From Gloeobacterales cyanobacterium (GTDB taxonomy: Bacteria > Cyanobacteriota > Cyanobacteriia > Gloeobacterales > PMM-0068): a stretch of DNA of 64,000 nucleotides. A model generated the notes under the pieces. The model saw only the letters and a program-made list of their open reading frames with translations, made no database searches and was not told where the DNA came from. Shown here one piece after another: positions 4,681-30,891 of this stretch. The stretch is taken from contig JBBRSB010000001.1 of assembly GCA_038245785.1 (NCBI GenBank), positions 128,001 to 192,000 of the forward strand. Reading direction: 5' to 3'. Made by a program: the position numbers and the translations under genes. The first letter of the stretch is position 1, and each line of letters starts with the position of its first letter.

Positions 4681-6951
4681 TTAACCATCTTGCCGCAAAT
4701 CTAAGGTCAACGGATATTCAGGACTGATATATAAAGTGGGCACGCTAACTTTTCCTGTGGCGGGTTTAAGCGCCATAAATCGTTCTTTCATACGGGATGT
4801 TGCTTCTTGAGGACTGGTGGGAAACTTTTCATAGGCTTCCCCATTGGGTCGATTCACATGGTATATACAACCGCCTAGGGATTTTTCTTCTTGAGTATCG
4901 ATTAGGTTAAATACCAGGGGGCTGTGGGGATCGATAGAAGGGTGTAAGGACGCAGCAAATTGTCTCGCTCGAAAACGTACCCCGCCTAAATATTCACCAG
5001 GTGTTCCTGTTGATTTTAGAGGGACTAGTCGATCATTACAGGTCACGACATAATGAGATGAAAAGTTATCCTCTTCTGAAGAGCTTCCTATTGCTCCGCG
5101 CAGCGTAACTTGCATCCGTTCCATAGAAGAGTCTACATAGCGAGCTGTCTGGCCTCCTATAGTTTCTTCTCCCAATACATGCCACGGTTCAATCGCATGG
5201 TGCAACTCTAATTGGAGCGCAGTATGGTCAAGTGCCTGTAGCGTAACGTCACCATAACGGGGAAAACGAAATTCAAAGAAAGGCTCAAACCATTCGGACT
5301 TGAAGGGATAACCTGATTGCTCTAGATCGGCTATTATCTCCTTTAAATCTTCCCCAAGGTAATAGGGCAGCATAAAACGATCGTGCAGTGTAGTTCCCCA
5401 GCGAATGAGACGCTCCGTATATGGTTTTTCCCAAAACCAAGCAACTAACGCACGAATCAGTAGCATTTGGAGCAAGCTCATCTGCACATGGGGAGACATA
5501 GAAAATGCTCGAAATTCTAATAGCCCCAACTGCGTACGATAATTTTCCATGGGGAATAATTTATCAATACAAAAGGCAGTGCGATGCGTGTTGCCTGTGA
5601 CATCTATTAATAGATTGCGCAATAGGCGATCCACTAAGAATGCAGGCACTTCTTGGTTAGGTTTTAAGGTTTGAAAGGCAATTTCCAACTCATATAAACT
5701 CTCATGCCGAGCCTCATCAACCCGAGGAGCTTGACTGGTAGGACCCACAAAAAGTCCGGCAAATAAATAGGAGAGACTGGGATGGTTTTGCCAATAGCTA
5801 ATCAAACTCCGCAGTAAATCGGGGCGTCGCAGGAGTGGGCTTTCTTCGGTAGTTCGACCGCCAATCGTGATGTGTGCGCCTCCACCCGTATCTACACGAC
5901 GACCATCTTTGGCATATTTCTCGATGCCAAGACCACATTTTTCAGCCTCTTCCTGGAGTATGGTGTGGATTTTGATTAGATCCTGCCAACTGGCTGCCGG
6001 ATGAATATTCACCTCAATCACACCAGGGTCCGGTGTAATTTGGAAACCAATAATCCCTGCATTTCCAAGAGGAGGATAGCCCTCAATTAAAATGGGAATT
6101 CCTGCTTCTCCTGCACTGTCTTCAATGGCCGCAATTAAATCGGCATACCCTCTAGCTGAACTAAAGGGAGGAAGAAAAACGTGCAAAAGTCCGTCTCTCA
6201 CTTCTATACTCAGCGCTACTCGAATCGAATTATCAGGTGACGCAACTGGGATAGGACTGGGAGCAATGGATTCACTATCCAGAGAAACAATTGCTTCTTC
6301 CTCCAAGTCTTCCACCCAAGGAATCATCCCTAAAGGTAAACGCAATCCCAGAGGAGAATAGCCTTGGATGAGTTGGAGCCTATTTTCCGGTGGGGTCCAG
6401 CGACAGCTTTGCCAATGTAAGGGCAATTCTTCTTCCCGGCGGACTGCCAAGAGAGGCAAAGTGTAACCAGCTAGCTCATTGGTTTCAGGTTCATAGGCAG
6501 GCAGTACATATTCTGGTGATATCCCTAAGCGTTGGATTAAAGCCTGGATGAAAATAGCTACTTCTTGCTGGGTATGGCTATAATCCTTGCCTTCCATAGC
6601 GAGGAGCTTAGGATTGCGCCAAAGGGGAACCCCATCTTCGCGCCAGTAACAAGCCAAAGCCCATCGGGGCATCGCTTCTCCGGGATACCATTTCCCTTGC
6701 CCATAGTGCAATAGCCCACCTTGGGCAGAGAATCTAGGACCAAGGCGACTCAGCAGTTTTCTGGCTAATGCTCGTTTCTCGTCTCCCAGTGCTGCAACTT
6801 GCCATTGCAAAGATTCAAAGTCGTCCGTGGAGACAAAAGTAGGCTCTCCTCCCATGGTCAAGCCGACACCCAAGCGGTTGAGCTGTTTTTCTACCTGTTG
6901 CCCTAATGCATCAATCTCTCGCCATTGCTCTTCGGTATAGGGGTGGCTCAC
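4681..6951 (-). CDS. DUF2126 putative amidoligase (COOH-NH2 ligase fold; often labelled transglutaminase family)
   Basis: LTMGGEPTF, GQGKWYPGE..PRW, ITPDPGVIEVN, TGGGAH, WQNHPSLSYLF, GPTSQAPRVDE, LEFRAF, YPLTLDLR. Confidence 0.85.
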   Translation of the reverse strand: MSHPYTEEQWREIDALGQQVEKQLNRLGVGLTMGGEPTFVSTDDFESLQWQVAALGDEKRALARKLLSRLGPRFSAQGGLLHYGQGKWYPGEAMPRWALACYWREDGVPLWRNPKLLAMEGKDYSHTQQEVAIFIQALIQRLGISPEYVLPAYEPETNELAGYTLPLLAVRREEELPLHWQSCRWTPPENRLQLIQGYSPLGLRLPLGMIPWVEDLEEEAIVSLDSESIAPSPIPVASPDNSIRVALSIEVRDGLLHVFLPPFSSARGYADLIAAIEDSAGEAGIPILIEGYPPLGNAGIIGFQITPDPGVIEVNIHPAASWQDLIKIHTILQEEAEKCGLGIEKYAKDGRRVDTGGGAHITIGGRTTEESPLLRRPDLLRSLISYWQNHPSLSYLFAGLFVGPTSQAPRVDEARHESLYELEIAFQTLKPNQEVPAFLVDRLLRNLLIDVTGNTHRTAFCIDKLFPMENYRTQLGLLEFRAFSMSPHVQMSLLQMLLIRALVAWFWEKPYTERLIRWGTTLHDRFMLPYYLGEDLKEIIADLEQSGYPFKSEWFEPFFEFRFPRYGDVTLQALDHTALQLELHHAIEPWHVLGEETIGGQTARYVDSSMERMQVTLRGAIGSSSEEDNFSSHYVVTCNDRLVPLKSTGTPGEYLGGVRFRARQFAASLHPSIDPHSPLVFNLIDTQEEKSLGGCIYHVNRPNGEAYEKFPTSPQEATSRMKERFMALKPATGKVSVPTLYISPEYPLTLDLRQDG

Positions 6952-6975
6952 GCTGGGAGATTCCTCTTGGGTGAA

Positions 6976-7611
6976 TTAAACAAGACGGTGACCACAACTA
7001 GAACAGAAGCGGTCTTCAGGCTCGACGGCGGTGCCACATTGACTGCAAAAGCGGCGGGTGCTCGTTGTACCTGCCGCCGCAGGCTTATCGGCAGCGATAG
7101 GTGGACTTGGAGTTTTTGGAGTACTCGAAACTGCAGGCGAACCCATGCGCATTTCCATATCTCCCATCCGCATTTCCATGGGGTTCATCTGCATGCCCCC
7201 CATGCTCATCGGTTTCATGGGCTCCATCGGCTTCATCGGGCTCATCTGCATCCCTCCCATATTCATCGGCTTCATCGGCTCCATCGGAGGCATAGAAGAG
7301 GAAGGGATACCCGCCACTTGTTGTACTTGCATTTGCTGAGAACCGCTGAGGGAGGGCGATCCTGCCATCACCTGCATGCTACTTCCTTGGATATGAATAA
7401 AATGTTCGCCCTGCGCTGTGGTAACTTTCAGAACCGCTCCGCCTGTGGTCTGAAAAATTTCAGGGGGAACACTCCAAGCTCCTGTATGAAAACCAGTACT
7501 GGACTGCTGCTGTTGTCCAGGACCACCGCTCATAGTGGTGACAACTGTCTGCGTTCCCTGATTATCAAGATAAATTCTTTGGCCTGTGCCTAGCTCGCAT
7601 GCATAAGCCAT
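6976..7611 (-). CDS. Zinc-ribbon protein with Met/Pro-rich repeat region
   Basis: C-terminal RFCSQCG...RFCSSCG; central MKPMEPMKPM repeats; start placed at MAYACELG (ORF open to 7650). Confidence 0.8.
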   Translation of the reverse strand: MAYACELGTGQRIYLDNQGTQTVVTTMSGGPGQQQQSSTGFHTGAWSVPPEIFQTTGGAVLKVTTAQGEHFIHIQGSSMQVMAGSPSLSGSQQMQVQQVAGIPSSSMPPMEPMKPMNMGGMQMSPMKPMEPMKPMSMGGMQMNPMEMRMGDMEMRMGSPAVSSTPKTPSPPIAADKPAAAGTTSTRRFCSQCGTAVEPEDRFCSSCGHRLV

Positions 7612-8057
7612 AGGCGCCTCATCAGTATGAAAAAGTTCTTTTATTGTCATCTTTCGGTAGTGACAGATTGCTGATTCTTAACAATTGTATTAGCTGAAAG
7701 TTTATGGTGATACCTCTGTAGCGCATACATACAGGAGACTGATCAATCTGGAGCGCTTATCATGCTGATTTTGCATGGAAACGATAACGTTAATGCATCA
7801 TAAATTACTCGACTCAGCGCTCTAATTACCAGATGTTTTGCATTAAGAAATCTACCGTTCATTCATTAATCACAGTTGTAGTGGTGCATATCTCCATTGA
7901 TAGGCACAGAAGTACGAAATTCTGCAAATACAGCGGAATCCTCTTTCTCCAAGAAGATAGATGATAATTCTTAATCTTTCTTTGTCCAGGGTTACAATTG
8001 ACGGACGCTGATATTTATATCAACCGCAATTATGGAATGGTTTGCCCACGTTGACCC

Positions 8058-8324
8058 ATGAACGCTGAGCCTCAAGTCAAAACCACCATATTCGACACCC
8101 AAGCGGGTTTTGAGCATTTTTGGGCTGGATTGAAACGAGAGGGCTTCCGCAAGGTAAAAGTGCTATATCACGGACGCACCCGCCGATGGAAGGTGGAAAC
8201 CCTCTGTGAAAATCTGGATGACCCAGAACGCCTGCAAAAATTGGAGCATGAGGCCAAAGATATAGAGGAAGCCGCCCAGCATCTTGAGCGGATGGTCTAC
8301 CCGCCTAGGTCTTGGGATGAATGA
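8058..8324 (+). CDS. Hypothetical protein (88 aa)
   Basis: ATG-start ORF with protein-like charged composition and no competing ORF; family not recognised. Confidence 0.55.
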   Translation: MNAEPQVKTTIFDTQAGFEHFWAGLKREGFRKVKVLYHGRTRRWKVETLCENLDDPERLQKLEHEAKDIEEAAQHLERMVYPPRSWDE

Positions 8325-8469
8325 AGTTACATCACCTTGTCATCTGAGACTAGAGGTTGGACCATAGAGACACGATAAGGTCAACCATTGGCTAAACTCT
8401 AGCGCCTAGAGATAGTGAGCAAAGCAGTTTGAGTTTTGGGTGAATCGGAAGGGGAGTAGCTAAAGCACG

Positions 8470-9663
8470 ATGAACGCGCAAAAGACGCGGGAGCAATCTA
8501 TCAGTCCTAGAGACTGGTCGTGGCCTTTCTGGCCACTAGTACCTCTTTACCCATACGGTAAGCGGCGGACCCTCCGTCAAGAAGTGCTTAAAGACACCAT
8601 CTGGACGTTTGACCAAATTCAGGGTGTTTTATACGTCGTCACACCGATTCGCATGACCGTCGTAAAACTCGATGAAGGCGGTTTGTTTGTTTTTGCTCCA
8701 ATTGCCCCAACCCGAGAGTGTATCCGGCTTGTTAAAGAACTAGTGGCAGAACATGGGGATGTCAAATACATCATCCTGCCCACCGTATCCGGCCTAGAGC
8801 ACAAAGTATTTGTTGGTCCTTTTGCTAGACGTTTTCCCCAGGCCCAGGTTTTCATGGCACCCAACCAGTGGAGCTTTCCCCTCAATCTCCCCCTTAGCTG
8901 GTTGGGCTTACCTTTAGGGCGTACCCATCTGCTTCCAGAAGACAGTAACAAAGCTCCCTTTACCAATCAGTTTGACTACGCTATTCTCGGCCCTATTGGG
9001 GTTGGTCAACCCTATGAAGAAGTAGCCTTTTTTCACAGACGAACCCGTACACTACTTATACTTGATGCAGTAGTTTCCATCTCAGAAGACCCCCCTGCTA
9101 TCGTCCAACTGGACCCCTATCCCTTACTGTTTCATGCCAGAGATAATGCCTTCGATATCGTCGAAGATACAGAGGAAAATCGACGCAAGGGCTGGAAACG
9201 CATCTCTCTATTCACATTCTATTTCCAACCAAGTGCCTTGCATGTAATTGGCTTAAAGCAGGCGTTCCGCGATGCCTGTAAAGCTCCAGACCGCTCTAAG
9301 AAAGCATATTTCGGCCTCTTCCCCTTCCGCTGGAAACCCATCTGGGAGGAATCTTTTGCTTCTCTGCGAGGCGGCGGACGTCTATTTGTAGCCCCCATTT
9401 TGCAAGCGCTGATTCTGAACCGAGCGCCCCGGCAAACCTTGGAGTGGGCTGATAAAGTAGCAAGCTGGAATTTTCAACGCATCATTCCCTGTCATGCAGA
9501 CTCACCGCTTGAAGTTGGTTCTCAGCAATTTCGGCAAGCCTTTGCCTTCCTAGAAAAGAAATCGTTAGTAGAGGGAAAAAATCATCTTCTTCCTGAAGCA
9601 GACTTTGAATTGCTTAGAAAAATTGAGAAAGCGCTGTCTCTACCGCCTCCACCCGCAAATTAG
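8470..9663 (+). CDS. DUF4336 family protein (metallo-beta-lactamase-like fold)
   Basis: WPFWPLVPLYPYG.RRT, PIRMTVVKL, GLEHKVF, IIPCH motifs. Confidence 0.85.
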   Translation: MNAQKTREQSISPRDWSWPFWPLVPLYPYGKRRTLRQEVLKDTIWTFDQIQGVLYVVTPIRMTVVKLDEGGLFVFAPIAPTRECIRLVKELVAEHGDVKYIILPTVSGLEHKVFVGPFARRFPQAQVFMAPNQWSFPLNLPLSWLGLPLGRTHLLPEDSNKAPFTNQFDYAILGPIGVGQPYEEVAFFHRRTRTLLILDAVVSISEDPPAIVQLDPYPLLFHARDNAFDIVEDTEENRRKGWKRISLFTFYFQPSALHVIGLKQAFRDACKAPDRSKKAYFGLFPFRWKPIWEESFASLRGGGRLFVAPILQALILNRAPRQTLEWADKVASWNFQRIIPCHADSPLEVGSQQFRQAFAFLEKKSLVEGKNHLLPEADFELLRKIEKALSLPPPPAN

Positions 9664-9961
9664 CTAGTGAATATAATTCTCTATCTCTCTCTGTTACATT
9701 TCATAATATTTTTTCGCAAGCATTTTCTGAGTGCTTAGGGCAAGGCTCACTCTTCTAAATGCTCTCCTAAAGAGCATTCCAGCTCTATTAGCGCCTATTC
9801 TAATAGATTTAGGTAAGGGGCAAAAGACCAAGCTCAGAATCCTCAGATATGACAACTTCCTTAAAACTAAAGATCTGTAGGCTTCCACGTTGCACAATCC
9901 ACACTAGCTAGAATTAAACTCCTGCTCCTTAGACACCCTCTTAATAGGCCACCCCTCCACT

Positions 9962-12900
9962 ATGAACAGCAACGAACTGCCCGCGAAACAAGGTCTGTAC
10001 GATCCACAGTTCGAGCATGACGCCTGTGGTGTCGGCTTTATCGTGCACATGAAAGGACATAAGTCTCACGATATTGTGACGCAGGCTTTGACCATTCTGG
10101 TGAACCTTGACCACCGGGGAGCTTGTGGTTGCGAGACGAATACGGGGGACGGAGCAGGCATTCTGATGCAGGTACCGCACAAGTTCCTGAAAAGAGTAGC
10201 GCAGGCAGAAAACATTACCCTGCCCGAAGCAGGGCAGTATGGCGTCGGCATGATTTATTCCTCGACCGATCCTGCTGCACGGGCGAAGAGCCGACAGATT
10301 TTTGAAAAGATTGCATCCGAGGAAGGCCTAGATGTTCTGGGCTGGCGCAATGTGCCGACGGATAACTCATTGCTGGGGGATACCGCCAAGTCTAGCGAAC
10401 CCTTTGTGGAGCAGGTATTCATTCAACGACCCGCAGATTTGGCAGACGATTTGGCTTTTGACCGTAAGCTCTACGTCATCCGCAAGCTAGCGCACAATGC
10501 CATCCGCGCAACCAAAATAGACGCCTGTTGGTATCCCTCCAGCCTCTCCTGCCGCACGATTGTCTATAAGGGAATGCTGATGCCCATACAGGTGGGGCAA
10601 TATTATCCTGAGCTCCACGATCCAGATGTGGAGAGTGCCTTGGCCCTGGTTCACTCCCGATTCAGCACCAATACCTTCCCTAGTTGGGAGCGCTCCCATC
10701 CCTATCGCTACATCGCCCACAACGGCGAAATCAATACGATGCGCGGCAACATCAATTGGATGATTGCCCGACAATCGATGTTCCAGTCGGAGCTGTTTGG
10801 AGAGGATATCCAGAAGATCCAGCCTGTGATCAACATCGATGGCAGCGACTCGACTATTTTCGACAATGCGCTTGAACTGATGGTTCTAGCCGGGCGGTCA
10901 CTACCCCATACGGTGATGATGATGATTCCTGAGCCGTGGACGGCTCATGAGTCGATGAGCGATGAGAAAAAAGCTTTTTATGAATACCACTCCTGCCTGA
11001 TGGAGCCGTGGGATGGCCCAGCATCCATCGCTTTCACCGACGGTACAATGATTGGCGCGGTGCTTGACCGTAACGGCCTCCGCCCCTCCCGTTACTACGT
11101 GACCAAAGACGATCTGGTGATCATGGCTTCGGAAGCAGGCGTACTGCCGATCGAACCGGAGCGGGTAGCAGAGAAAGGCCGCTTGGAACCAGGCCGGATG
11201 TTCCTGGTGAATATGGAAGAGGGCCGCATTGTCACAGACGAAGAAATTAAGCACCAAATTGCGACGGAGCATCCCTATCGCCAATGGATCAACCAACATA
11301 TGGTTGAACTGGCAAGCCTGAAAGATGCGCCTGAATTGCCAGCATTAGATACTCTGCCTCTGCTGCAACGCCAGATGGCCTTTGGCTACACCTTTGAAGA
11401 ACTGCGCATGTTATTGACACCGATGGCCCGTGATGGTGTCGAGGCCATTGGAGCAATGGGTTCGGATACGCCCCTGGCCGTGCTTTCTGACCGCCCTAAA
11501 CTACTGTATGAATACTTTCAGCAACTCTTTGCCCAGGTGACGAACCCACCGATTGATTCTATCCGCGAAGAAATTATCACTTCGGCGGAGACGACCATCG
11601 GTTCTGAGCGCAACTTGCTCAAACCCGAGCCCGAAAGCTGCCATTTGATTGAGCTGAAAACACCGATTCTCAGCAACGAAGAGCTGGCCAAGCTTAAGTA
11701 TTTAGCTAAGACCGAGATGCAGGAGACCGAGACGCGAAATTTCGCGTCTTTACTGCTCCCTATCCTTTTTGATCCAAAGTCTGGGAGGCAGGGTCTTGAG
11801 CAGGTGATGGATGAGCTTTTTGCAAAGGCAGATGAGGCCATTGCCGCAGGGGTGAGCATCCTTATCCTTTCCGACCGAGGCGTGGATAAAGATAAGGCTC
11901 CCATTCCGGCACTGCTTGCGGTTGCGGGACTGCATCACCACTTGATCCGTGAAGGCACCCGTACACGGGTGGGTCTTGTGCTCGAATCGGGTGAACCACG
12001 GGAAGTCCATCACTATGCAACCCTAATTGGCTATGGCTGCGGAGCGATCAATCCCTATCTTGCTTTTGAGACGCTGGATGACATGATTGGTCAAGGCTTG
12101 CTGGTGGATGTTGACCATAAGACTGCCTGCAAGAACTACATCAAAGCCGCAACTAAAGGGGTTACCAAAGTTGCTTCAAAGATTGGGATCTCGACGTTGC
12201 AGAGCTATCGTGGGGCTCAGATTTTCGAAGCGATTGGTCTGAATCAGGCGGTTGTTGACAAATACTTCACTTGGACGGCCTCTCGCATTGAGGGTGCGGA
12301 CCTGGAAGTGATTGCGAAAGAAGCAATTTTGCGACACGGTCATGCCTTCCCAGACCGTCCCGGAGATGGTCACACCCTCGATGTTGGCGGTGAATACCAG
12401 TGGCGTAAGGAAGGGGAAGCGCATCTGTTCAGCCCAGAGACGATTCACGCCCTGCAAAAAGCGGTGCGTGGCGGTAGCTATGAGATGTACAGACAGTACG
12501 CCGCCTTGGTCAACGAGCAAGGGCAGAAGTACTACACCTTGCGCGGACTGCTGGAGTTCAAGCAGCGAGCATCGGTACCGATTGAAGAAGTCGAGCCAAT
12601 CGAAGCGATCCTGAAGCGCTTCAAAACCGGGGCGATGAGCTACGGCTCCATCTCCAAGGAAGCCCACGAAACCCTGGCGATTGCGATGAACCGGATTGGC
12701 GGCAAATCGAACACGGGTGAAGGGGGCGAAGATCCTGACCGCTACACCTGGACCAATGAGCAGGGCGACTCGAAAAATAGTGCGATTAAACAGGTTGCCT
12801 CCGGTCGTTTCGGTGTTACCAGTCTCTATCTCTCCCAGGCTAGGGAACTTCAGATCAAGATGGCACAGGGCGCAAAACCGGGTGAGGGAGGACAGCTTCC

Positions 12901-23606: not shown

Positions 23607-24662
23607 CTACACTCCCAACCCCAGTTTTTCCCAGAGCGCATCTCGGCCCCCCTTTACACAATGCACCCGGCTTTCCTTCTTGAGGTGCGCCAAGACCCGA
23701 TTAATCGTCGGGCGGCTCACTGTTGGACAAGCCTTTTGGATATCCGAAATCTGGAATTGCTGGGGTAGACGAGCAATCGTGTCGGCAACCATCTCCCGTT
23801 TTGCTCCTTTCTGGGTTGTCACCACGCCAACCCGTTGCTCAAACCCGCGGTAGGCACTCAATACCACGCCCAGAAAATATTCCCACCAGGGCAACAGCTC
23901 ATGCTCTCCTTCATGCCATCTTTGAGAACATCGCTGAAGCGTTTCATCGTAACTTTCCTTCGTGCGCTCTATGATCGCTTCTAAGCTGATGTACCGCCCC
24001 ACTTCATATCCAGCTTGGTACAGCAATAACAACGACAACAGCCGCGCCATACGACCATTTCCATCTAAGAAAGGATGGACGCACAGAAAATCTAAGCTAC
24101 AGGTCGCAATCAGCAACAGGGGCTCAATCGTTCCTTCCTGCCAGTACTGATTAAAGTGCCCATGGAGTTCCTGCATCGCCTGAGGTGTGAGGTAAGCCGG
24201 AACGGGACGAAAGCGCACAACCGTTGTTCCATCGGCACGAGTTTCTCGAATATCGTTGTCAGATCCTTTCCAGACCCCGCCTTGAATCGGCAGAAACTGG
24301 GTTAAATCCCGATGGAGTTGCAGCACCAGACCAGGGGTAAAGGTCATGCCGTCATAGTTTGCATGGATGCTATTTAGCACCTCCCGATAGCCCAAGATCT
24401 CCTGCTCGGAGCGACTTTGGGGACTAACTTTATCCGCCATCAACAACTGGAGACGTTGGGGCACGGTGGCAATCCCCTCAATGCGGTTAGACGATTCCGT
24501 ACTTTGAATCACGGCAATCTGTCTCAAGCTTTCTAAAACCTGAGGCGACTGATTTTGAAACAGTGCTTGCTTCCCCTTGTACTCGCCCAACAGCCGAATG
24601 GTCTGCAAGAGCGATTGGGGAATCGGTTGACGTTCAATGACACCAGAAACAAAGGATTGCAT
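23607..24662 (-). CDS. Fic family protein (class II, N-terminal inhibitory helix) with C-terminal HTH
   Basis: HPFLDGNGRMAR catalytic loop; SNRIEG inhibitory motif; C-terminal CPTVSRPTINRVL helix-turn-helix. Confidence 0.92.
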   Translation of the reverse strand: MQSFVSGVIERQPIPQSLLQTIRLLGEYKGKQALFQNQSPQVLESLRQIAVIQSTESSNRIEGIATVPQRLQLLMADKVSPQSRSEQEILGYREVLNSIHANYDGMTFTPGLVLQLHRDLTQFLPIQGGVWKGSDNDIRETRADGTTVVRFRPVPAYLTPQAMQELHGHFNQYWQEGTIEPLLLIATCSLDFLCVHPFLDGNGRMARLLSLLLLYQAGYEVGRYISLEAIIERTKESYDETLQRCSQRWHEGEHELLPWWEYFLGVVLSAYRGFEQRVGVVTTQKGAKREMVADTIARLPQQFQISDIQKACPTVSRPTINRVLAHLKKESRVHCVKGGRDALWEKLGLGV

Positions 24663-24890
24663 AAGTCCCTAAACATGATCACATGAGTCCTAGATGATCA
24701 TGTTAACGAGATCATGATCACATTGCTCGGCATAGACCAAAAAGATTAACTTTTCTTCCCATGTAAGATAGTTTGGCCTTCTGTCCACGACTGTCACAGG
24801 CGATTGCCCCTTCGCAAAGCCTGCGTGGCCTACCCCATAGTCATTCCAGACCTGCTCCAAAAGACGAATTTATAAGAATTTCAGTATGTC
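24466..24890. repeat. Copy 1 of ~400-bp diverged direct repeat (fic 5' end plus upstream region)
   Basis: Aligns by eye with 25750-26155, e.g. shared GAGTCCTAGATGATCATGTTAACGAGATCATGATCACATTG. Confidence 0.85.
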
Positions 24891-25020
24891 TTTGATCTCG
24901 ATTTTGAGGATCCGTTACTGGATAAAGCCTAAAAGCGTCGGAGGAGTTAGACTCAGAATCAAGGCATTGCTCGGTGCCAGGAACATACACTACGATATGG
25001 CAGATGAAGAAGGAGAGAAA

Positions 25021-25257
25021 ATGCTGAATGGACTTCGGCAAAAAACAGTCGTGCAGCCCGATGGTGTAGTTACCATTCAATCATCGGAATTACCGTTAGG
25101 AGCGACAGTGGAAGTCATTGTTCTCGTAGAACCGCAGCCGTCTGAACTTCCAGAACTTAGCCTTACGAGTTTAATCGGCACGGCTAAAGGCAGCTTTGCA
25201 ACACCTGAAGAGGCAGATCGGTTTATTCGACAAGAACGGGATTCATGGGAATCCTAG
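25021..25257 (+). CDS. Putative antitoxin of VapBC-type pair
   Basis: RBS GAAGGAG; LPLGATVEVIVLVE...EEADRFIRQERDSWE; overlaps PIN gene start. Confidence 0.75.
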   Translation: MLNGLRQKTVVQPDGVVTIQSSELPLGATVEVIVLVEPQPSELPELSLTSLIGTAKGSFATPEEADRFIRQERDSWES

Positions 25258-25688
25258 ACATCATTCAGGGCAATTTGGTGTATCTGGATGTCAATATCTG
25301 GATATATGCCTTGGAGGGCTACCCTGATTTTTGGGAGGAGATAACGCTGCTCTTTCAGGCTATTGATCGAGGAAATTTGAAAGCAGTCACGAGCGAACTG
25401 TCTTTGGCAGAAGCTTTAGTCAAGCCTATGCAACTCCAGAATGAATCCCTTCAAAAAGCTTACAAGACAGCGATATCCAACCGTCAAAATGTTGCAGTCC
25501 TTCCGGTGGAGCGCGAGATTTTGATTCAAGCTGCTCAATTGCGCTCAACGAGTAAGTTAAAACTCCCCGATGCGATTCATGGAGCTACTGCACTGAAAGC
25601 TCAATGCACTTCATTTTTGACCAATGACCGAGCTTTTAAGGAAATCACTAATCTTCATACTGTGCTTTTGTCAGAGGTCATTGAATGA
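25245..25688 (+). CDS. vapC: PIN-domain (VapC-like) toxin
   Basis: VYLDVNIWIY, SELSLAEAL, LKLPDAIHGATA, FLTND acidic PIN residues. Confidence 0.9.
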   Translation: MGILDIIQGNLVYLDVNIWIYALEGYPDFWEEITLLFQAIDRGNLKAVTSELSLAEALVKPMQLQNESLQKAYKTAISNRQNVAVLPVEREILIQAAQLRSTSKLKLPDAIHGATALKAQCTSFLTNDRAFKEITNLHTVLLSEVIE

Positions 25689-26170: not shown

Positions 26171-29100
26171 CTACTTCCCGGCATAGTTTTTGCAGGTTTG
26201 CTTTGCTTCCTTTGCCACATCAGTTTTAGGCTGAATAAGGCTGGGATTGTCGCGCAACTGATCGCAGGCGATTTGCAGTGAATGTTTCCAAGAAATATCC
26301 CAGATCCTTACCGTTCCGCCCTTGCTCCCACTTAAGATACGTTTGCCATCCGGACTGAACGCCACTGAAGTGACCAAAACATTATTATATTTGGAGAATT
26401 TGCCGATTTTGGAGGGTTGGCCGATTTTGAAAGGTTTGCCAATGGCTTCACCCGTGACGGCATTCCAAATCCTTACTGTCTTGTCGTTACTACCATTGAC
26501 AATGCGTTGGCCATCCGGACTAAATGCCACTGAAGTGACTGTATCCTCATCTTTGATGGGTTTGCCGATCGCTCCTACTGTGGCCACATTCCAAATCCTT
26601 ACTGTCTTGTCATTACTTCCACTGACAATACGTTGGCCATCGGGGCTGAACGCCACTGAATTAACATTAGCCTCATGACCGTTGAAAGGCCTGCCGATAG
26701 GTTGTCCCGTAGCCGCATCCCAAATCCTTATCGTTCCATCCCTACTACTACTTAAGATGCGTTTGCCATCGGGACTGAACGCAACTGAAGTGACTAAAAC
26801 ATCATAATATTTGGAGGGGTTAACAATTTTGGAGGGTTGGCCGAGTATGAAAGGTTTGCCAATGGCTTCACCCGTGGTCGCATTCCCAATCCTTACTGTT
26901 CCGTCATAACTAACACTTAAGATGCGTTTGCCATCGGGGTTGAACGCCACAGAAGTGATCCCATACTCATTACCTTTCAAAGGTAAAGGTTTGCCAATAG
27001 CTTCAGTCGTAGCTGCATTCCAAATCCTTACCGTTCCGCCAAGCCTGCCACTAACAATGTCTTTGCCATTAGGACTAAACGCTACTGAAGTGACTGTATC
27101 ATCCTCTTTAATCGGTTTACCCAGGGGCTTACCAGTGGCAGCTTCCCAAACCCGTATCGTTTTGTCCTCACTGCCACTGACGATGCGTTTGCCATCAGGA
27201 CTGTACGCCACTGACTTAACAACATCCGTATGCCCTTTGAGGGGTTGGCCGATGGGTTGGCCCGTAGCCGCATCCCAAATCCGTACTGTATTGTCCTTAT
27301 TAGTTCTTAAATAATCACTACTGCCACTGACGATACGTTTGCCATTAGGACTAAACGCCACTGCATTGACCGACTTCGTGTGTCCTATGAGGGCCTTGCC
27401 GATAGGTTCTCCTGTAGCCGCATCCCAAATCCTTACCGTTCCATCACGACTGCCACTGACAATGTGTTTACTATTGGGACTAAATGCAACTGAATTAACT
27501 TCAGCTTCATGGTGTAATTGATTTTGCTCCTGATTTTCCCGTATGACATCCAGTAAGCTCCCATACACAGCCTCAAATTGAGGCTGGTCAGAAAATAGAG
27601 CAAAAGCAGATTGACTCAAACCAGTTGCTGCAATTGCATTGATTTCTGCGTTTACAGGTTGGCTTGAAAGCAAAATTTCCGCATTTGTAGCCAACTGTTC
27701 AGCCCGCTGCCGCTGGGTCTGCTGCCCCTGATATGACGCAAAGGTTAATAAACCCAAAGTCAGCACAAGTCCTGTACTCAGGAATCCAAACCAAAGCTTT
27801 TGCTGTCGCCTATGCTCCCTCTCATCCTTCTCAGCTGCCTGCTTTTGGGCTTGTTCCAAATCGATAGAGGCCTTAAAAAGCTCGACTTGCAGCGGGGTCA
27901 TATCATCACCATCTCGGTCATAGTATTGCCGCAGCAAATCCAGATCGGGCGATCTCCAGAGGTTGCCCTCTGGTCGTCCATTTTTGCGCCAATAGATAGC
28001 CGATTCATCCAGTCGCCGTTGAAAGCGCAGATCGCTGCGACCGTTATCAAGCCACTTCTTCAATTGATCCCAGTTATCGAATAATGCCTCGTGGGTCACT
28101 TCAACAGTTTCTGAACTAGCATCGCCATCAGAGGCCAACGTAATTAGACGCGCACTAGGATCAGCAAACCGAGCAATCACCTGTCTGACCTCTTCAGGAC
28201 GGTCTCGATATGAAATCATTTGCTGAAGAGCTGTTCGACGACGTGTGTCTTTTGTCCCTTCTCCCAGTTGAACAAGTCCTAAAAACATCCGCCGCGCAAT
28301 ATTTTGTTCGTCAGGATTGAGATCCGAGTAGATCCGTTGTGCTTCTCCGGCCAGTGCCCCACCTACACCGCCAATTTCCGTCAGTGTCTGCGAGGGTTTC
28401 TTGCCATTTGTTAGTCCTTCCCAAATCCGTGTCAGGGCAAACTGGAGCAAGGGTAAAGCACCTTCCCGTCCTTCAGTCTGTTCAACCAGCAAGCTAACAG
28501 TAGATTCATCCAGGGCGTGTCCTGCCTGTTCCGCTGGTTTACGAATGGCGTCTCGGAGTCCATCCACACTCAGGGCAGAGACAAAAGACCCCTGCTCAGC
28601 AATCAATTGATTTAGCTGAGGATATTTCTGGGTTGCACCCAAAAAGTCGCTCCGCAGGGTAACGATCGCAGAAACCCTTTTTGCCAGGTCCTTAGATGCG
28701 CAAAGCAAATTCCCAATAAACGCATCGCGCTCAGCCTCATCTTCGCAAAGAGTATAAACCTCCTCCAATTGATCCGCCAAAACTATGAGCGGAGAGATAG
28801 CAATATCCGGCAACACATCCGCAATCCGACGTAACCCGTCATATTCGCCGTTTGCATTTTTCTTAGCCAGTTCCTCAGCAAACTCACGGGTCTTCGCCAC
28901 AGGGGTAAGGTCATTGGTCGCAATTCGTGCCAGAACTGTCGCTAGTGCTTCTAAGGGATGACTTCCAGGCACCAGCACTGCAACCTTAGGGTGCTCACGT
29001 CCAGGCAATGGTCGTCTATCTAGTTCCGGTATCAACCCTGCTCTTGCCAAGGAAGACTTTCCCGAACCCGATGGACCATAAATTGGCAATAGACGAATAG

Positions 29101-29404
29101 CAGATGGGGAATCATGCAGACTTCTGAACTTCGCCCAAAGCTCCTGGATTTGTTTCTTTCTTCCAAAAAAGCGCTCACCGTCCGTTTCTTGAAAGGCCAA
29201 CAATCCTTTGTAAGGGTTTGGACCCATTTTTTTGTCAGGTTTGACATCAGACTCTTTCGGCTCAATCGGTACATTGTTATAGATGACCGTTCCATAGACC
29301 ACCATCCCGCCGCTAAGCACCTGCCCAATGGTCTGGTTGCGATCGCCCTTCACATTCTGGTTAATCGGTGGATCTGAGTCTGGAGTAAGAGGAGAATCAG
29401 GCAT
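26171..29404 (-). CDS. NLR-like protein: N-terminal amyloid-like motif, nSTAND1 NTPase, TM helix, 9 WD40 repeats
   Basis: NPYKGLLAF...FFGR, Walker A GPSGSGKSSLARAG, Walker B ADQLEEVYT, TLRSDF, LPLLQFAL, EVTHEALF; LWFGFLSTGLVLTLGLLTFA; repeats of SVAFSPDGKRIVSGS.D.TVRIWD; ATG overlaps upstream TGA. Confidence 0.92.
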   Translation of the reverse strand: MPDSPLTPDSDPPINQNVKGDRNQTIGQVLSGGMVVYGTVIYNNVPIEPKESDVKPDKKMGPNPYKGLLAFQETDGERFFGRKKQIQELWAKFRSLHDSPSAIRLLPIYGPSGSGKSSLARAGLIPELDRRPLPGREHPKVAVLVPGSHPLEALATVLARIATNDLTPVAKTREFAEELAKKNANGEYDGLRRIADVLPDIAISPLIVLADQLEEVYTLCEDEAERDAFIGNLLCASKDLAKRVSAIVTLRSDFLGATQKYPQLNQLIAEQGSFVSALSVDGLRDAIRKPAEQAGHALDESTVSLLVEQTEGREGALPLLQFALTRIWEGLTNGKKPSQTLTEIGGVGGALAGEAQRIYSDLNPDEQNIARRMFLGLVQLGEGTKDTRRRTALQQMISYRDRPEEVRQVIARFADPSARLITLASDGDASSETVEVTHEALFDNWDQLKKWLDNGRSDLRFQRRLDESAIYWRKNGRPEGNLWRSPDLDLLRQYYDRDGDDMTPLQVELFKASIDLEQAQKQAAEKDEREHRRQQKLWFGFLSTGLVLTLGLLTFASYQGQQTQRQRAEQLATNAEILLSSQPVNAEINAIAATGLSQSAFALFSDQPQFEAVYGSLLDVIRENQEQNQLHHEAEVNSVAFSPNSKHIVSGSRDGTVRIWDAATGEPIGKALIGHTKSVNAVAFSPNGKRIVSGSSDYLRTNKDNTVRIWDAATGQPIGQPLKGHTDVVKSVAYSPDGKRIVSGSEDKTIRVWEAATGKPLGKPIKEDDTVTSVAFSPNGKDIVSGRLGGTVRIWNAATTEAIGKPLPLKGNEYGITSVAFNPDGKRILSVSYDGTVRIGNATTGEAIGKPFILGQPSKIVNPSKYYDVLVTSVAFSPDGKRILSSSRDGTIRIWDAATGQPIGRPFNGHEANVNSVAFSPDGQRIVSGSNDKTVRIWNVATVGAIGKPIKDEDTVTSVAFSPDGQRIVNGSNDKTVRIWNAVTGEAIGKPFKIGQPSKIGKFSKYNNVLVTSVAFSPDGKRILSGSKGGTVRIWDISWKHSLQIACDQLRDNPSLIQPKTDVAKEAKQTCKNYAGK

Positions 29405-29856
29405 CAAGACAACTCATTCGTCACATTCCCCTGAACAGTGCCATATACTACTTGACCACCCTTCATCTGCCCAATTACCTGATTTTGATTCCCGGTGACA
29501 GTTTGGACAACTTGGAGTCCAGGAGTGCCATCAGGAGCGTTTTCTTGGAGAATTCGAGCGATCTCTTTGGTCAGTTCTTTATCCTGCTCTAATATTTTTT
29601 GTAATTGTCGTTTGAGGGCAATTCTCGACTCTTCATCCTCTGGATTATTCGCCACATCCGCAGCGGCTTCTTTTGCCGCTTCCTTGGTCTCCACCTTAGG
29701 ACTTAACTTCTCCCAAACCGCCTGTGCCTTACCCCAAGCCGCCTCGCCAAACTTCCCCGAAGCAGATTCAGTCGCTTTCTCCACCGCCTTTCCACCTAAT
29801 TTCAACAGAAAGGGTAAGAACGGGCTGATGAACCCTGTCAAAACGGCGATTTCCAT
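29404..29856 (-). CDS. Bell-like helical effector with C-terminal amyloid signalling motif
   Basis: Hydrophobic N-terminal helix (LTGFISPFLPFLLKLGGKA), helical bundle, tail VVQTVTGNQNQVIGQMKGGQVVYGTVQGNV matching the NLR N-terminus. Confidence 0.8.
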   Translation of the reverse strand: MEIAVLTGFISPFLPFLLKLGGKAVEKATESASGKFGEAAWGKAQAVWEKLSPKVETKEAAKEAAADVANNPEDEESRIALKRQLQKILEQDKELTKEIARILQENAPDGTPGLQVVQTVTGNQNQVIGQMKGGQVVYGTVQGNVTNELS

Positions 29857-30217
29857 GTTCAAATCCTTATTTGAAAAAACCATTACCCATAACTTGCAAT
29901 ATCAGGAGCTAAGTTGCGACATGCCAGAATTCCAAGATTTTCACATACCCAGCATGACACGTAGATATCCAAGTGTAATCATACTGAGTTGAAGCAGAAA
30001 GTCAATTGAAAGATCTTTCGGTTAATTTGGTGAGCTTTTAGCCGATTTTGACTTTCCTGCAATTTTATTTGATTTGGTCGAACATTAGGTTGTGGGGAAC
30101 GGCTCCATCCACCGTGAGGATAAGAGGCGCAGAAAGCAAGCGGTGACTATACTCAAGTTATCTACCTCTACTCCAGTAGCTTTTTGAGCGAATATTTATT
30201 CTAAGAGTTGATCAAGC

Positions 30218-30514
30218 ATGCTTACCACGACTGACATTGGTACATTAATCACTCGTTCTTCAGAAATCGGGAGTGGTCGTCCGATGATTGCGGGCACGAG
30301 AACCTCGGTAAGGCGCGTGGTTGTTCTATATAAACAAGGTGCAGGTGCAGAAGAAATAGCCCGTCGCATGAGTCATCTCAGCCTTGCCCAGGTTTATGCG
30401 GCACTAGCTTACTATCATGCCAACCGCGACGAGATTGAAGCAGATTTGGCTGAAGAGGAAGCTGAATATTCCAGATTAGCAGCAGCACACGGTAAAAATG
30501 CTGGACAGAGCTAG
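30218..30514 (+). CDS. DUF433 antitoxin
   Basis: GRPMIAGTRTSV, HLSLAQVYAALAYYHAN. Confidence 0.9.
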   Translation: MLTTTDIGTLITRSSEIGSGRPMIAGTRTSVRRVVVLYKQGAGAEEIARRMSHLSLAQVYAALAYYHANRDEIEADLAEEEAEYSRLAAAHGKNAGQS

Positions 30515-30516
30515 GA

Positions 30517-30891
30517 ATGGGCAAAATTCTGCTGTATCTTGATGAAGACTCAATGGATCAGGACTTTGTACAGGCGCTGCGGTCACGCAATGTCGATGTT
30601 CTGACCGTTGCAGATGCAGGGATGTTCTACAGGACAGATGAAGAGCAGCTCGCCTGGGCAGCAGAACATTATCGAGTCATTTTCAGCTTCAATACAAGAG
30701 ATTTTTATCGCTTGCACACGATTTTGCTGGAGCAGGGATTGTCTCATGCAGGAATTGTGCTAGCACCGCAACAGCGATATGGAGTGGGCGAACTCATGCG
30801 CGGAGTTCTAAATTTGATTAATACTAAGTCGGCAGAAGAGATGGTTAGTCAACTAGAATTTCTGAGTGATTGGGTCCCAGGAGAAAGATGA
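30517..30891 (+). CDS. DUF5615 PIN-like toxin
   Basis: LYLDED, DEEQLAWA, SFNTRDF, HAGIV; directly follows DUF433. Confidence 0.88.
   Translation: MGKILLYLDEDSMDQDFVQALRSRNVDVLTVADAGMFYRTDEEQLAWAAEHYRVIFSFNTRDFYRLHTILLEQGLSHAGIVLAPQQRYGVGELMRGVLNLINTKSAEEMVSQLEFLSDWVPGER

Follow-up and report, generated by a model that had tools for sequence, protein, structure and literature searches.

A 64,000-nucleotide stretch of the genome of a Gloeobacterales cyanobacterium (GenBank assembly GCA_038245785.1, contig JBBRSB010000001.1, positions 128,001 to 192,000 of the forward strand), referred to here as the window, carries on its minus strand two collinear genes whose products share a motif of about 30 residues. 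The upstream gene (29407..29856) encodes a 150-residue protein, the effector, in which an all-helical domain of Bell type is followed by a tail that holds the motif; the downstream gene (26171..29404) encodes a 1077-residue protein, the receptor, in which the motif lies near the N-terminus, ahead of an nSTAND1 NTPase module and WD40 repeats. We propose that the two genes probably constitute a Bell/BASS-type module for regulated cell death or defence. Homology and conserved architecture, judged by sequence comparison, give good support to their assignment as a signalling pair of this type.

The effector start was set at the ATG at 29856 (MEIAV...) and not at the ATG at 29883; M-[ED]-I is kept at this position in 27 of 27 aligned homologues, three of which carry short extra N-terminal residues. 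The effector stop codon, TGA (29406-29404), overlaps the receptor start codon, the ATG at 29404, in the string TGATG, an overlap of 1–4 nt between the genes; an alternative receptor start is the TTG at 29407. The last receptor codon ends at 26174 and is followed by the stop codon.

In the effector, the motif spans residues 114–147 (LQVVQTVTGNQNQVIGQMKGGQVVYGTVQGNVTN; 29416..29517, minus strand) and scores 50.2 bits with a 33-position hidden Markov model (HMM) built from the effector tails of an alignment, A1, described below, and run on six frames. The tail used for pairwise comparison, VVQTVTGNQNQVIGQMKGGQVVYGTVQGNV, is encoded at 29511-29422, and the C-terminal end of the protein reads LQVVQTVTGNQNQVIGQMKGGQVVYGTVQGNVTNELS. 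The receptor begins with a 13-residue leader of Pro, Asp and Ser (MPDSPLTPDSDPP; 29366..29404, minus strand), followed at residues 14–45 by its own copy of the motif (INQNVKGDRNQTIGQVLSGGMVVYGTVIYNNV; 29270..29365, minus strand), which scores 18.2 bits and can be aligned to the N-terminal copies in 15 further partner proteins. These strings and positions, the leader and the TGATG overlap are all as given in the first-pass annotation of this DNA, which had counted about 17 identities in 31 positions; global alignment of the effector tail with the receptor motif gives 18 identities among 30 aligned residues.

That the resemblance is a low-complexity coincidence, or the functionless remnant of a recent local duplication, appears extremely improbable. 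The region is compositionally biased, but when the effector is compared by BLASTP with residues 1–77 of the receptor, 19 of 36 residues are identical at a composition-adjusted E-value of 2e-8, and a six-frame scan of the organism's own genome (255 contigs totalling 5.0 Mb, with 98% completeness) finds the motif in these two proteins only, the next-best match scoring 12.1 bits (E = 0.76). The aligned codons agree at 54 of 90 nucleotides, and the same codon is used at only six of the 18 identical residues, which points to selection on the peptide and excludes a recent DNA duplication, as the first-pass annotation had argued from the synonymous codons. The arrangement also recurs in related loci, as described below.

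Across 27 effector tails, G, N, Q, V, I and T make up 17.8, 13.7, 14.6, 16.7, 10.5 and 12.5% of residues (85.8% in sum); proline is absent, K, R, D and E together contribute 5.6%, and K and L contribute 2.1% and 1.2%. BASS motifs are described by Dyrka et al. (10.1101/2020.01.06.895854) as about 25 residues long, with a bias towards Q, N, G, V and I and few K, P or L residues, a description that the effector tails fit in both length and composition. Each effector has one copy of the motif (one significant HMM domain). Identity between the motifs within a pair is 53–60%, and the same source gives 43–56% for BASS pairs that cross-seed.

The receptor-side consensus reads x-Q-I-x-Q-x-V-x-G-D-R-N-Q-T-I-G-Q-V-L-G-G-I-V-V-Y-V-S-G-G-Q-A-I-I. 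Leaders rich in P, D and S and of similar length precede it in other partners too, and it is followed by a linker of 20–30 residues and then by the start of nSTAND1, G-P-N-P-Y-K-G-L-L-A-F. A core of about 20 residues, Q-x-V-x-G-[DN]-x-N-Q-x-I-G-Q-x-x-G-G, is common to both sides. Receptors usually have V-V-Y here, and in the window receptor the block reads V-V-Y-G-T-V. Among 120 effector homologues, VVYG occurs in one, the window effector itself (in the block G-G-Q-V-V-Y-G-T-V); the others read K/Q-V-F/I-G-N-I-T-G. The codons for VVYGTV differ between the two window genes at five of six positions. Because VVYG is typical of receptors and unique among these effector homologues, we read the effector tail as having converged on the version of its own receptor.

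This convergence bears on a further explanation, in which the two motifs make no contact with each other and serve a common third function, such as a protease or chaperone recognition site or a localisation signal. The motif does sit at exposed termini, and CHAT (caspase-like) proteins bear it in related loci, so that in some cases the network does include a protease. However, no motif-bearing protease is seen in the organism's own genome, where the motif is confined to the two window proteins, and a shift of the effector tail to its own receptor's version is what would be expected of mutual recognition, not of a common third partner. We consider a third function quite improbable. A prediction of the complex, with two copies each of receptor residues 1–52 and effector residues 106–150, gave no answer (score 0.04, mark 0.32) and counts neither for nor against contact.

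The helical domain of the effector (residues 1–105; 29542..29856, minus strand) was delimited from an AlphaFold2 (AF2) model and from profile relatives. Two alignments were used: A1, with 27 sequences about 70% identical, and A2, a diverse set of 97 sequences. With A2, helices are modelled at residues 3–20, 25–36, 38–57, 59–70, 75–91 and 93–104, with predicted local distance difference test (pLDDT) values mostly of 80–90 over the block, and the tail is unstructured from residue 110, with pLDDT <50 in the motif region. A confident helical domain with a disordered tail fits the expectation for a soluble prion-forming tail. The model from the shallow alignment A1 (pLDDT 45.9) was set aside.

The first helix (residues 3–20; 29797-29850, minus strand) is hydrophobic, and residue 2 is Glu: the N-terminus reads M-E-I-A-V-L-T-G-F-I-S-P-F-L-P-F-L-L-K-L (Kyte-Doolittle mean 1.74), compared with an A2 consensus of M-D-I-x-x-L-T-x-F-L-x-P-F-L-P. 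Such a helix at the N-terminus, hydrophobic and with its acidic residue at position 2 or 3, is described by Dyrka et al. as a signature of Bell, HeLo, MLKL and RPW8 domains, and Bell proteins as being about 120–140 residues long with a predicted all-helical N-terminal domain of ~100 residues (10.1101/2020.01.06.895854). The window effector shows the same features, being a short protein with a helical N-terminal domain, a hydrophobic helix and an acidic residue at position 2.

Searches with the effector found no family match in Pfam, NCBIfam or PADLOC. In a collection clustered at 90% identity, 314 relatives were recovered at E ≤ 1e-3, mostly 146–147 residues long and 67–80% identical; their sources are largely metagenomes, and the few named records are cyanobacterial. 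The A1 profile reaches 1628 clusters (50% identity) at E ≤ 1e-3 and 660 at E ≤ 1e-10, and the tail type of the window is found on 46 of the 150 best of these clusters. Matches in the ESM Atlas fall in cyanobacterial clusters only. A lead towards HetE-N (PF20701), present on 12% of members of one such ESM Atlas cluster, was dropped, as none of the 97 A2 members match it at E ≤ 0.01. A search of PDB sequences with the A1 profile gave a best E-value of 1.3, which is noise.

Bell membership was judged by way of published Bell-side motif samples, there being no public or Pfam Bell model to score against. Samples for BASS1–10 are found in supplementary file 1 of PMC8086366 and consist of fragments matched by the profile HMMs of each family. 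Three of the 150 best profile matches carry tails that, matched by eye, correspond to entries in these samples: P0160 (tail AKQTGSVSNVIASGERAVAIGGNASGNTVSTGD; entry C09_s014, BASS6; A1 profile E = 1.9e-31), P0152 (tail GDNIEMNGESYDQSSFKQVGKIQ; entry Ccya03_s004, BASS9; E = 7.3e-35) and P0155 (tail GQGTWVRQSVIGDGNQVIGTMGGSAKAVG; entry A0A2W4ZHR4_9CYAN, BASS1; E = 3.3e-34), the E-values covering the helical domain. Since these profile relatives have published Bell-side tails, the window effector is, on sequence grounds, a member of the Bell family as delimited by Dyrka et al., and its earlier description as Bell-like is borne out by profile homology to published Bell-domain proteins. Three further relatives of about 340–356 residues (P0142, P0145 and P0151) begin with an extension of ~200 residues and have the Bell domain and motif in the 140 residues at their C-terminus.

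The receptor contains an nSTAND1 NTPase module at residues 64–479 (27968..29215, minus strand; Pfam PF20703, E = 1.5e-107). A Walker A motif, GPSGSGKS, is read at residues 110–117 (29054-29077, minus strand), and we read a Walker B-like element, LIVLADQLEE, at residues 206–215 (28760-28789, minus strand). The WD40 repeat region, the presumed sensor, covers about residues 617–1044 (26273..27556, minus strand; Pfam WD40, E = 1.3e-101, nine repeats); with PADLOC, the repeat region gives the receptor's only match, to HEAT-ARM_XIII. The NTPase part reaches 12.6 bits with the NACHT model, whose cut-off is 26.7, and gives no match to NB-ARC. By these sequence comparisons the receptor is of the STAND class in the wider sense, and the earlier naming of the partner as an NLR holds only in that broad sense because the NTPase is nSTAND1; as a NACHT or NB-ARC protein it does not stand.

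Between the NTPase and the repeats lies a hydrophobic segment of 22 residues (LWFGFLSTGLVLTLGLLTFASY; residues 537–558; 27731..27796, minus strand), preceded by HRRQQK and with a Kyte-Doolittle 19-residue mean of 1.8. A comparable segment (1.48–2.51) is found at residues 524–568 in 12 of 13 nSTAND1 partners—those of L001, L002, L003, L005, L008, L009, L024, L026, L028 and L029 included—where it is ~20 residues long, lies behind a basic cluster and likewise separates NTPase and repeats; the open reading frame (ORF) of the thirteenth ends at residue 527. Judged by hydropathy, the window segment is possibly a single membrane-spanning helix, which, if true, would place the WD40 or pentapeptide sensor outside the cytoplasm. 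An extended version of this idea, which we put forward as a rather unlikely speculation, is that the receptor spans the membrane, with motif and nSTAND1 in the cytoplasm and WD40 repeats outside, and would report an extracytoplasmic event (phage adsorption, envelope damage or contact with a neighbour) through a BASS1-like amyloid whose nucleation arms the Bell pore-former; the nSTAND1 class would then be the main amyloid-signalling receptor of non-heterocystous cyanobacteria. A NACHT partner in another locus (L018:6129-8150, plus strand) has the N-terminal motif and four hydrophobic segments at residues 435–570 instead of a repeat sensor.

The organism's own genome contains one Bell homologue of the window type, one full-length nSTAND1 and one motif pair. 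Effector relatives are present in eight of 41 genomes searched, this one included, and in neither of two genomes of the same genus (94% and 97% complete); the distribution of the effector family is patchy, as for an accessory gene. The recurrence of the pair was surveyed in 36 genome loci with an effector relative together with the window, all but two of the loci being cyanobacterial; the taxa include Chamaesiphon, Leptolyngbyaceae, Phormidesmis, Alkalinema, Stenomitos, Altericista and Leptolyngbya PCC 7375, and two of the loci (L015 and L016) have identical sequences. Counting the window, 29 sources have a Bell-side tail recognised at a domain E ≤ 0.01; the remaining eight loci are cut or end in another type of tail (L021, L022, L025, L030, L031, L032, L035 and L036). 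In 23 of the 29 tail-bearing loci, the motif is also present near the N-terminus of at least one neighbouring ORF. The absence of paired motifs from homologous loci had been named beforehand as a finding that would speak against the pair, and the survey shows instead that motif pairing is a trait of the effector family across cyanobacteria. The partner ORF nearly always follows directly on the same strand and has its motif inside the first 60 residues of the open frame.

Effector tails score somewhat higher with their own partners (mean local score 71.4) than with foreign ones (66.2) over 25 non-redundant pairs, and none of 10000 permutations reached the observed mean; the comparison is descriptive only, because the loci are related. 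Among 21 partner ORFs scanned with Pfam there are 14 with nSTAND1, one with NACHT, one with NB-ARC plus TPR, one with CHAT, and four with no family. The nSTAND1 partners continue with WD40, with pentapeptide repeats or with nothing further, and the same motif heads the NACHT protein of L018 and the NB-ARC plus TPR protein of L034.

Several other arrangements were seen in these loci. Single Bell-motif-CHAT proteins are encoded at L009:4980-6137, L011:4989-6176 and L012:4989-6128 (plus strands), with the motif internal, between putative effector domains. Further fusions with an internal motif are that at L007:4884-6539 (plus strand) and P0121, also in the Bell-motif fusion set; one of the fusions joins Bell and motif to a DUF900 alpha/beta-hydrolase. 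Downstream of the Bell gene of L010 are three consecutive motif-bearing ORFs (5469-10446, plus strand), two of which (443 and 1048 residues) have no Pfam family; the motif-bearing ORFs L012:6166-7419 (plus strand) and L002:3749-4801 (minus strand) resemble these and also have none. In two metagenome-assembled genomes of Chloroflexi/Anaerolineales, the initial ~100 residues of the Bell domain (matching query residues 9–103) are joined directly to proteins of 913 and 1030 residues that lack the motif (L035:5001-7742 and L036:5001-8093, plus strands).

The first-pass annotation suggested that the motif might be an undescribed family. Compared by published sample sequences, it is probably not a new family and at best a divergent cyanobacterial sub-type of BASS1. 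The BASS1 sample (ucluster_01, entries C01_*) in supplementary file 1 of PMC8086366 contains the near-identical tail DGQGTWIQQSVTGDRNQVIGTMGGNAKAIGS of A0A2W4ZHR4_9CYAN, which lies a few positions from the tail of the window family and shares its V-T-G-D-R-N-Q-V-I-G core; the tail of L001, for example, reads TQIVQNVTGDRNQVIGQMTGGKAIGNITG. P0155, a close relative of A0A2W4ZHR4_9CYAN, reaches 32.6 bits against our motif HMM, and other BASS1 entries, of the W-V-Q-x-N-V-A-R-D-N-G-R-V-F-A-A-Q-G-G-N type, align by eye with the A0A2W4ZHR4_9CYAN tail position by position. We infer that C01 denotes BASS1 because of its file number and because its highest index, s210, agrees with the set size of 210 listed in Table 1 of PMC8086366. 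The canonical actinobacterial form is of the A-S-G-x-G-R-V-Y-Q-A-G-R-D-Q type, and the Streptomyces tail, A-S-G-x-G-R-V-Y-Q-A-G-R-D-Q-H-I-T-E-R, is clearly more distant. The partial text of the PMC8086366 supplement (2.4 million characters) contains neither the strings NQVIGQ, GNQNQ and VYGTV nor the receptor-side strings NPYKGL, IGQVLGG and VVYVSGG, which leaves their absence from the full supplement unproven.

Part of this set appears to lie outside what has been counted before. BASS1 pairs have been called specific to Actinobacteria, and the pair screen behind that statement took NACHT and NB-ARC neighbours only (10.1101/2020.01.06.895854). A receptor that falls below the NACHT cut-off and has no NB-ARC would not be counted by such a screen. 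We found no description of a Bell/nSTAND1 pair in the literature searched on amyloid signalling, although Table S2 of Dyrka et al. may list such pairs. The cyanobacterial Bell/nSTAND1 pairs thus seem to have escaped the published pair census, with the principle, and probably the motif family, already in print.

Relationships to other motif families were also considered. RHIM sequences have the core tetrad (I/V)-Q-(I/V)-G. Both window motifs read N-Q-[VT]-I-G-Q, with no hydrophobic-Q-hydrophobic-G, and neither gives a Pfam RHIM match at E ≤ 0.1, so that the RHIM likeness proposed in the first pass is not supported; BASS3 sample tails read G-V-Q-V-G-D-x-N-x-Q. The Pfam HET-s and sigma models do not match the window proteins at E ≤ 0.1, and the single HMM domain per effector is also unlike HET-s or HRAM.

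The comparison with effector-associated domains (EADs) raises the most substantial alternative to amyloid signalling. In the NTPase-centred conflict systems described by Kaur et al. (PMC8195603), which are reported as enriched in multicellular bacteria, a STAND NTPase, nSTAND1 being named among them, bears a small N-terminal adaptor that recurs on separate effectors in the same locus. The window motif could be a homotypic docking tag of this kind, pairing by strands or through a small folded interface, with no self-propagating amyloid and with activation by proximity or oligomerisation. Its occurrence on nSTAND1, NACHT, NB-ARC and CHAT proteins, and within fusions of Bell to CHAT or to a hydrolase, follows the modular logic of EADs, and the computed data do not separate amyloid from non-amyloid pairing. 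Moreover, Pfam EAD10 (PF19954) matches two of 97 other Bell proteins, in the C-terminal tails of P0218 (residues 107–145) and P0253 (residues 115–143), which places at least one EAD in the same class of element as a BASS-type tail. The archetypal EAD10 protein has a TPR-GreA/B-C-PIN architecture (PMC8195603), as does Agp with its BASS11 motif (Ibarlosa et al., 10.1101/2024.11.07.622273). Given this shared architecture and the EAD10 matches to Bell tails, EAD10 and a BASS-type tail, probably the BASS11 of Bab/Agp, are probably one kind of element under two names.

Against a docking tag, nine of the 12 EADs counted in PMC8195603 are helical domains, whereas the window motif, a short strand-prone peptide of ~30 residues with no proline and 86% G/N/Q/V/I/T, is modelled as unstructured in the monomer and differs from a folded helical domain. 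None of Pfam EAD1–12 matches either window protein at E ≤ 0.1. The nearest published relative of the motif is in BASS1, a Streptomyces coelicolor member of which gave cross-beta fibrils (10.1101/2020.01.06.895854). Docking without amyloid is the alternative that we take most seriously, and we still think it unlikely.

We return to the Bell/BASS-type module as the preferred reading, and compare it with characterised systems. The published BASS1 pairs of Bell and NLR genes have the same layout as claimed for this locus in the first pass and as found here, with a small helical Bell protein bearing a C-terminal motif and a collinear, overlapping STAND gene bearing the motif at its N-terminus and carrying WD repeats; the length, composition and within-pair identity of the motif are similar, and it likewise occurs on CHAT and alpha/beta-hydrolase proteins. 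In Bab/Agp of E. coli (BASS11) the genes are also adjacent, with a small Bell-related helical effector carrying a C-terminal motif and a large sensor carrying it at the N-terminus; the motif family is different, however, the effector has 109 residues, and no sequence or fold match of the window to the Bab structure was found in PDB searches. In HET-S/NWD2 of Podospora anserina, a WD-repeat NLR nucleates an N-terminal amyloid that templates the C-terminal prion domain of an adjacent pore-forming helical effector; this system is fungal, its effector has two 21-residue pseudo-repeats in place of the single motif copy found here, and there is no sequence relationship.

By analogy with HET-S/NWD2, with the tested BASS1 and BASS3 pairs and with Bab/Agp, the window pair may work by amyloid templating. 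A signal bound by the WD40 part, perhaps phage, envelope damage or non-self, would bring about NTP-dependent oligomerisation of the receptor, which would cluster the N-terminal motifs into a cross-beta fold; this would template the same fold in the effector tail and so free the N-terminal helix of the Bell domain, leading to membrane damage and cell death or arrest. Such templating would fit the tail's composition, the lack of structure predicted for it in the monomer and the 53–60% identity within pairs. Among published cases, BASS1 and BASS3 motifs formed fibrils and prions (10.1101/2020.01.06.895854), and Bab/Agp is described as an abortive-infection system working by amyloid signalling (10.1101/2024.11.07.622273); among bacterial pairs, a phage-defence phenotype has been shown for Bab/Agp alone. 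For BASS11, GFP fusions have been shown to form heritable foci that a single proline substitution abolishes.

A number of results weigh against this interpretation. Six of the 29 tail-bearing loci (L007, L011, L019, L020, L023 and L033) have no partner in the DNA examined, and the gap between own and foreign scores is small, about 5 units. The receptor, with nSTAND1 and WD40, is not of the NACHT or NB-ARC type, with TPR or WD repeats, that characterises the receptors of BASS-type pairs. Beta strands in the tail are seen only in the low-confidence A1 model and are absent from the better A2 model. Foldseek against the PDB gave no match for the effector domain at E ≤ 1e-3, whether to HeLo, MLKL, Bab or other folds, and the best Z for the helical domain among 48161 chains compared with VIA-align was 4.7; fold comparison thus speaks neither for nor against a likeness to HeLo, MLKL or Bab. 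PADLOC has no defence-system model for either the effector or the receptor.

Amyloid signalling from an NLR-type receptor to a pore-forming effector links regulated cell death in bacteria, fungi and animals, with one function shown in bacteria so far, that of Bab/Agp. The window locus is a clean single-copy example, with one receptor, one effector and one motif pair in its genome, and it represents a large nSTAND1-coupled cyanobacterial set that seems to lie outside the published NACHT/NB-ARC census. The pair-specific VVYG match offers a handle on whether motif matching sets the specificity of signalling, and the membrane helix, if there is one, makes it worth asking on which side of the membrane such receptors detect their signal. 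The known principle is unchanged; what may be new, and modestly so, is the nSTAND1 receptor type and its conserved hydrophobic segment.

Upstream of the effector start lies a promoter-like site, TTGACT-16-TATGAT (29978..30005, minus strand), with 10 of 12 consensus matches; the promoter scan gave six sites against 5.3 expected in shuffles, so that the site is no more than a match to the consensus. Toxin-antitoxin-like genes lie on both sides of the pair: a Fic (Fic/DOC) gene (23610-24662, minus strand), a small ORF overlapping a PIN gene (24886-25685, plus strand) and a DUF433 plus DUF5615 pair (30218-30888, plus strand). Outside these are glycosyl hydrolase and glycosyltransferase genes of housekeeping type. 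In locus L022 of the survey, the Bell domain is itself fused to HTH_66 and DUF433.

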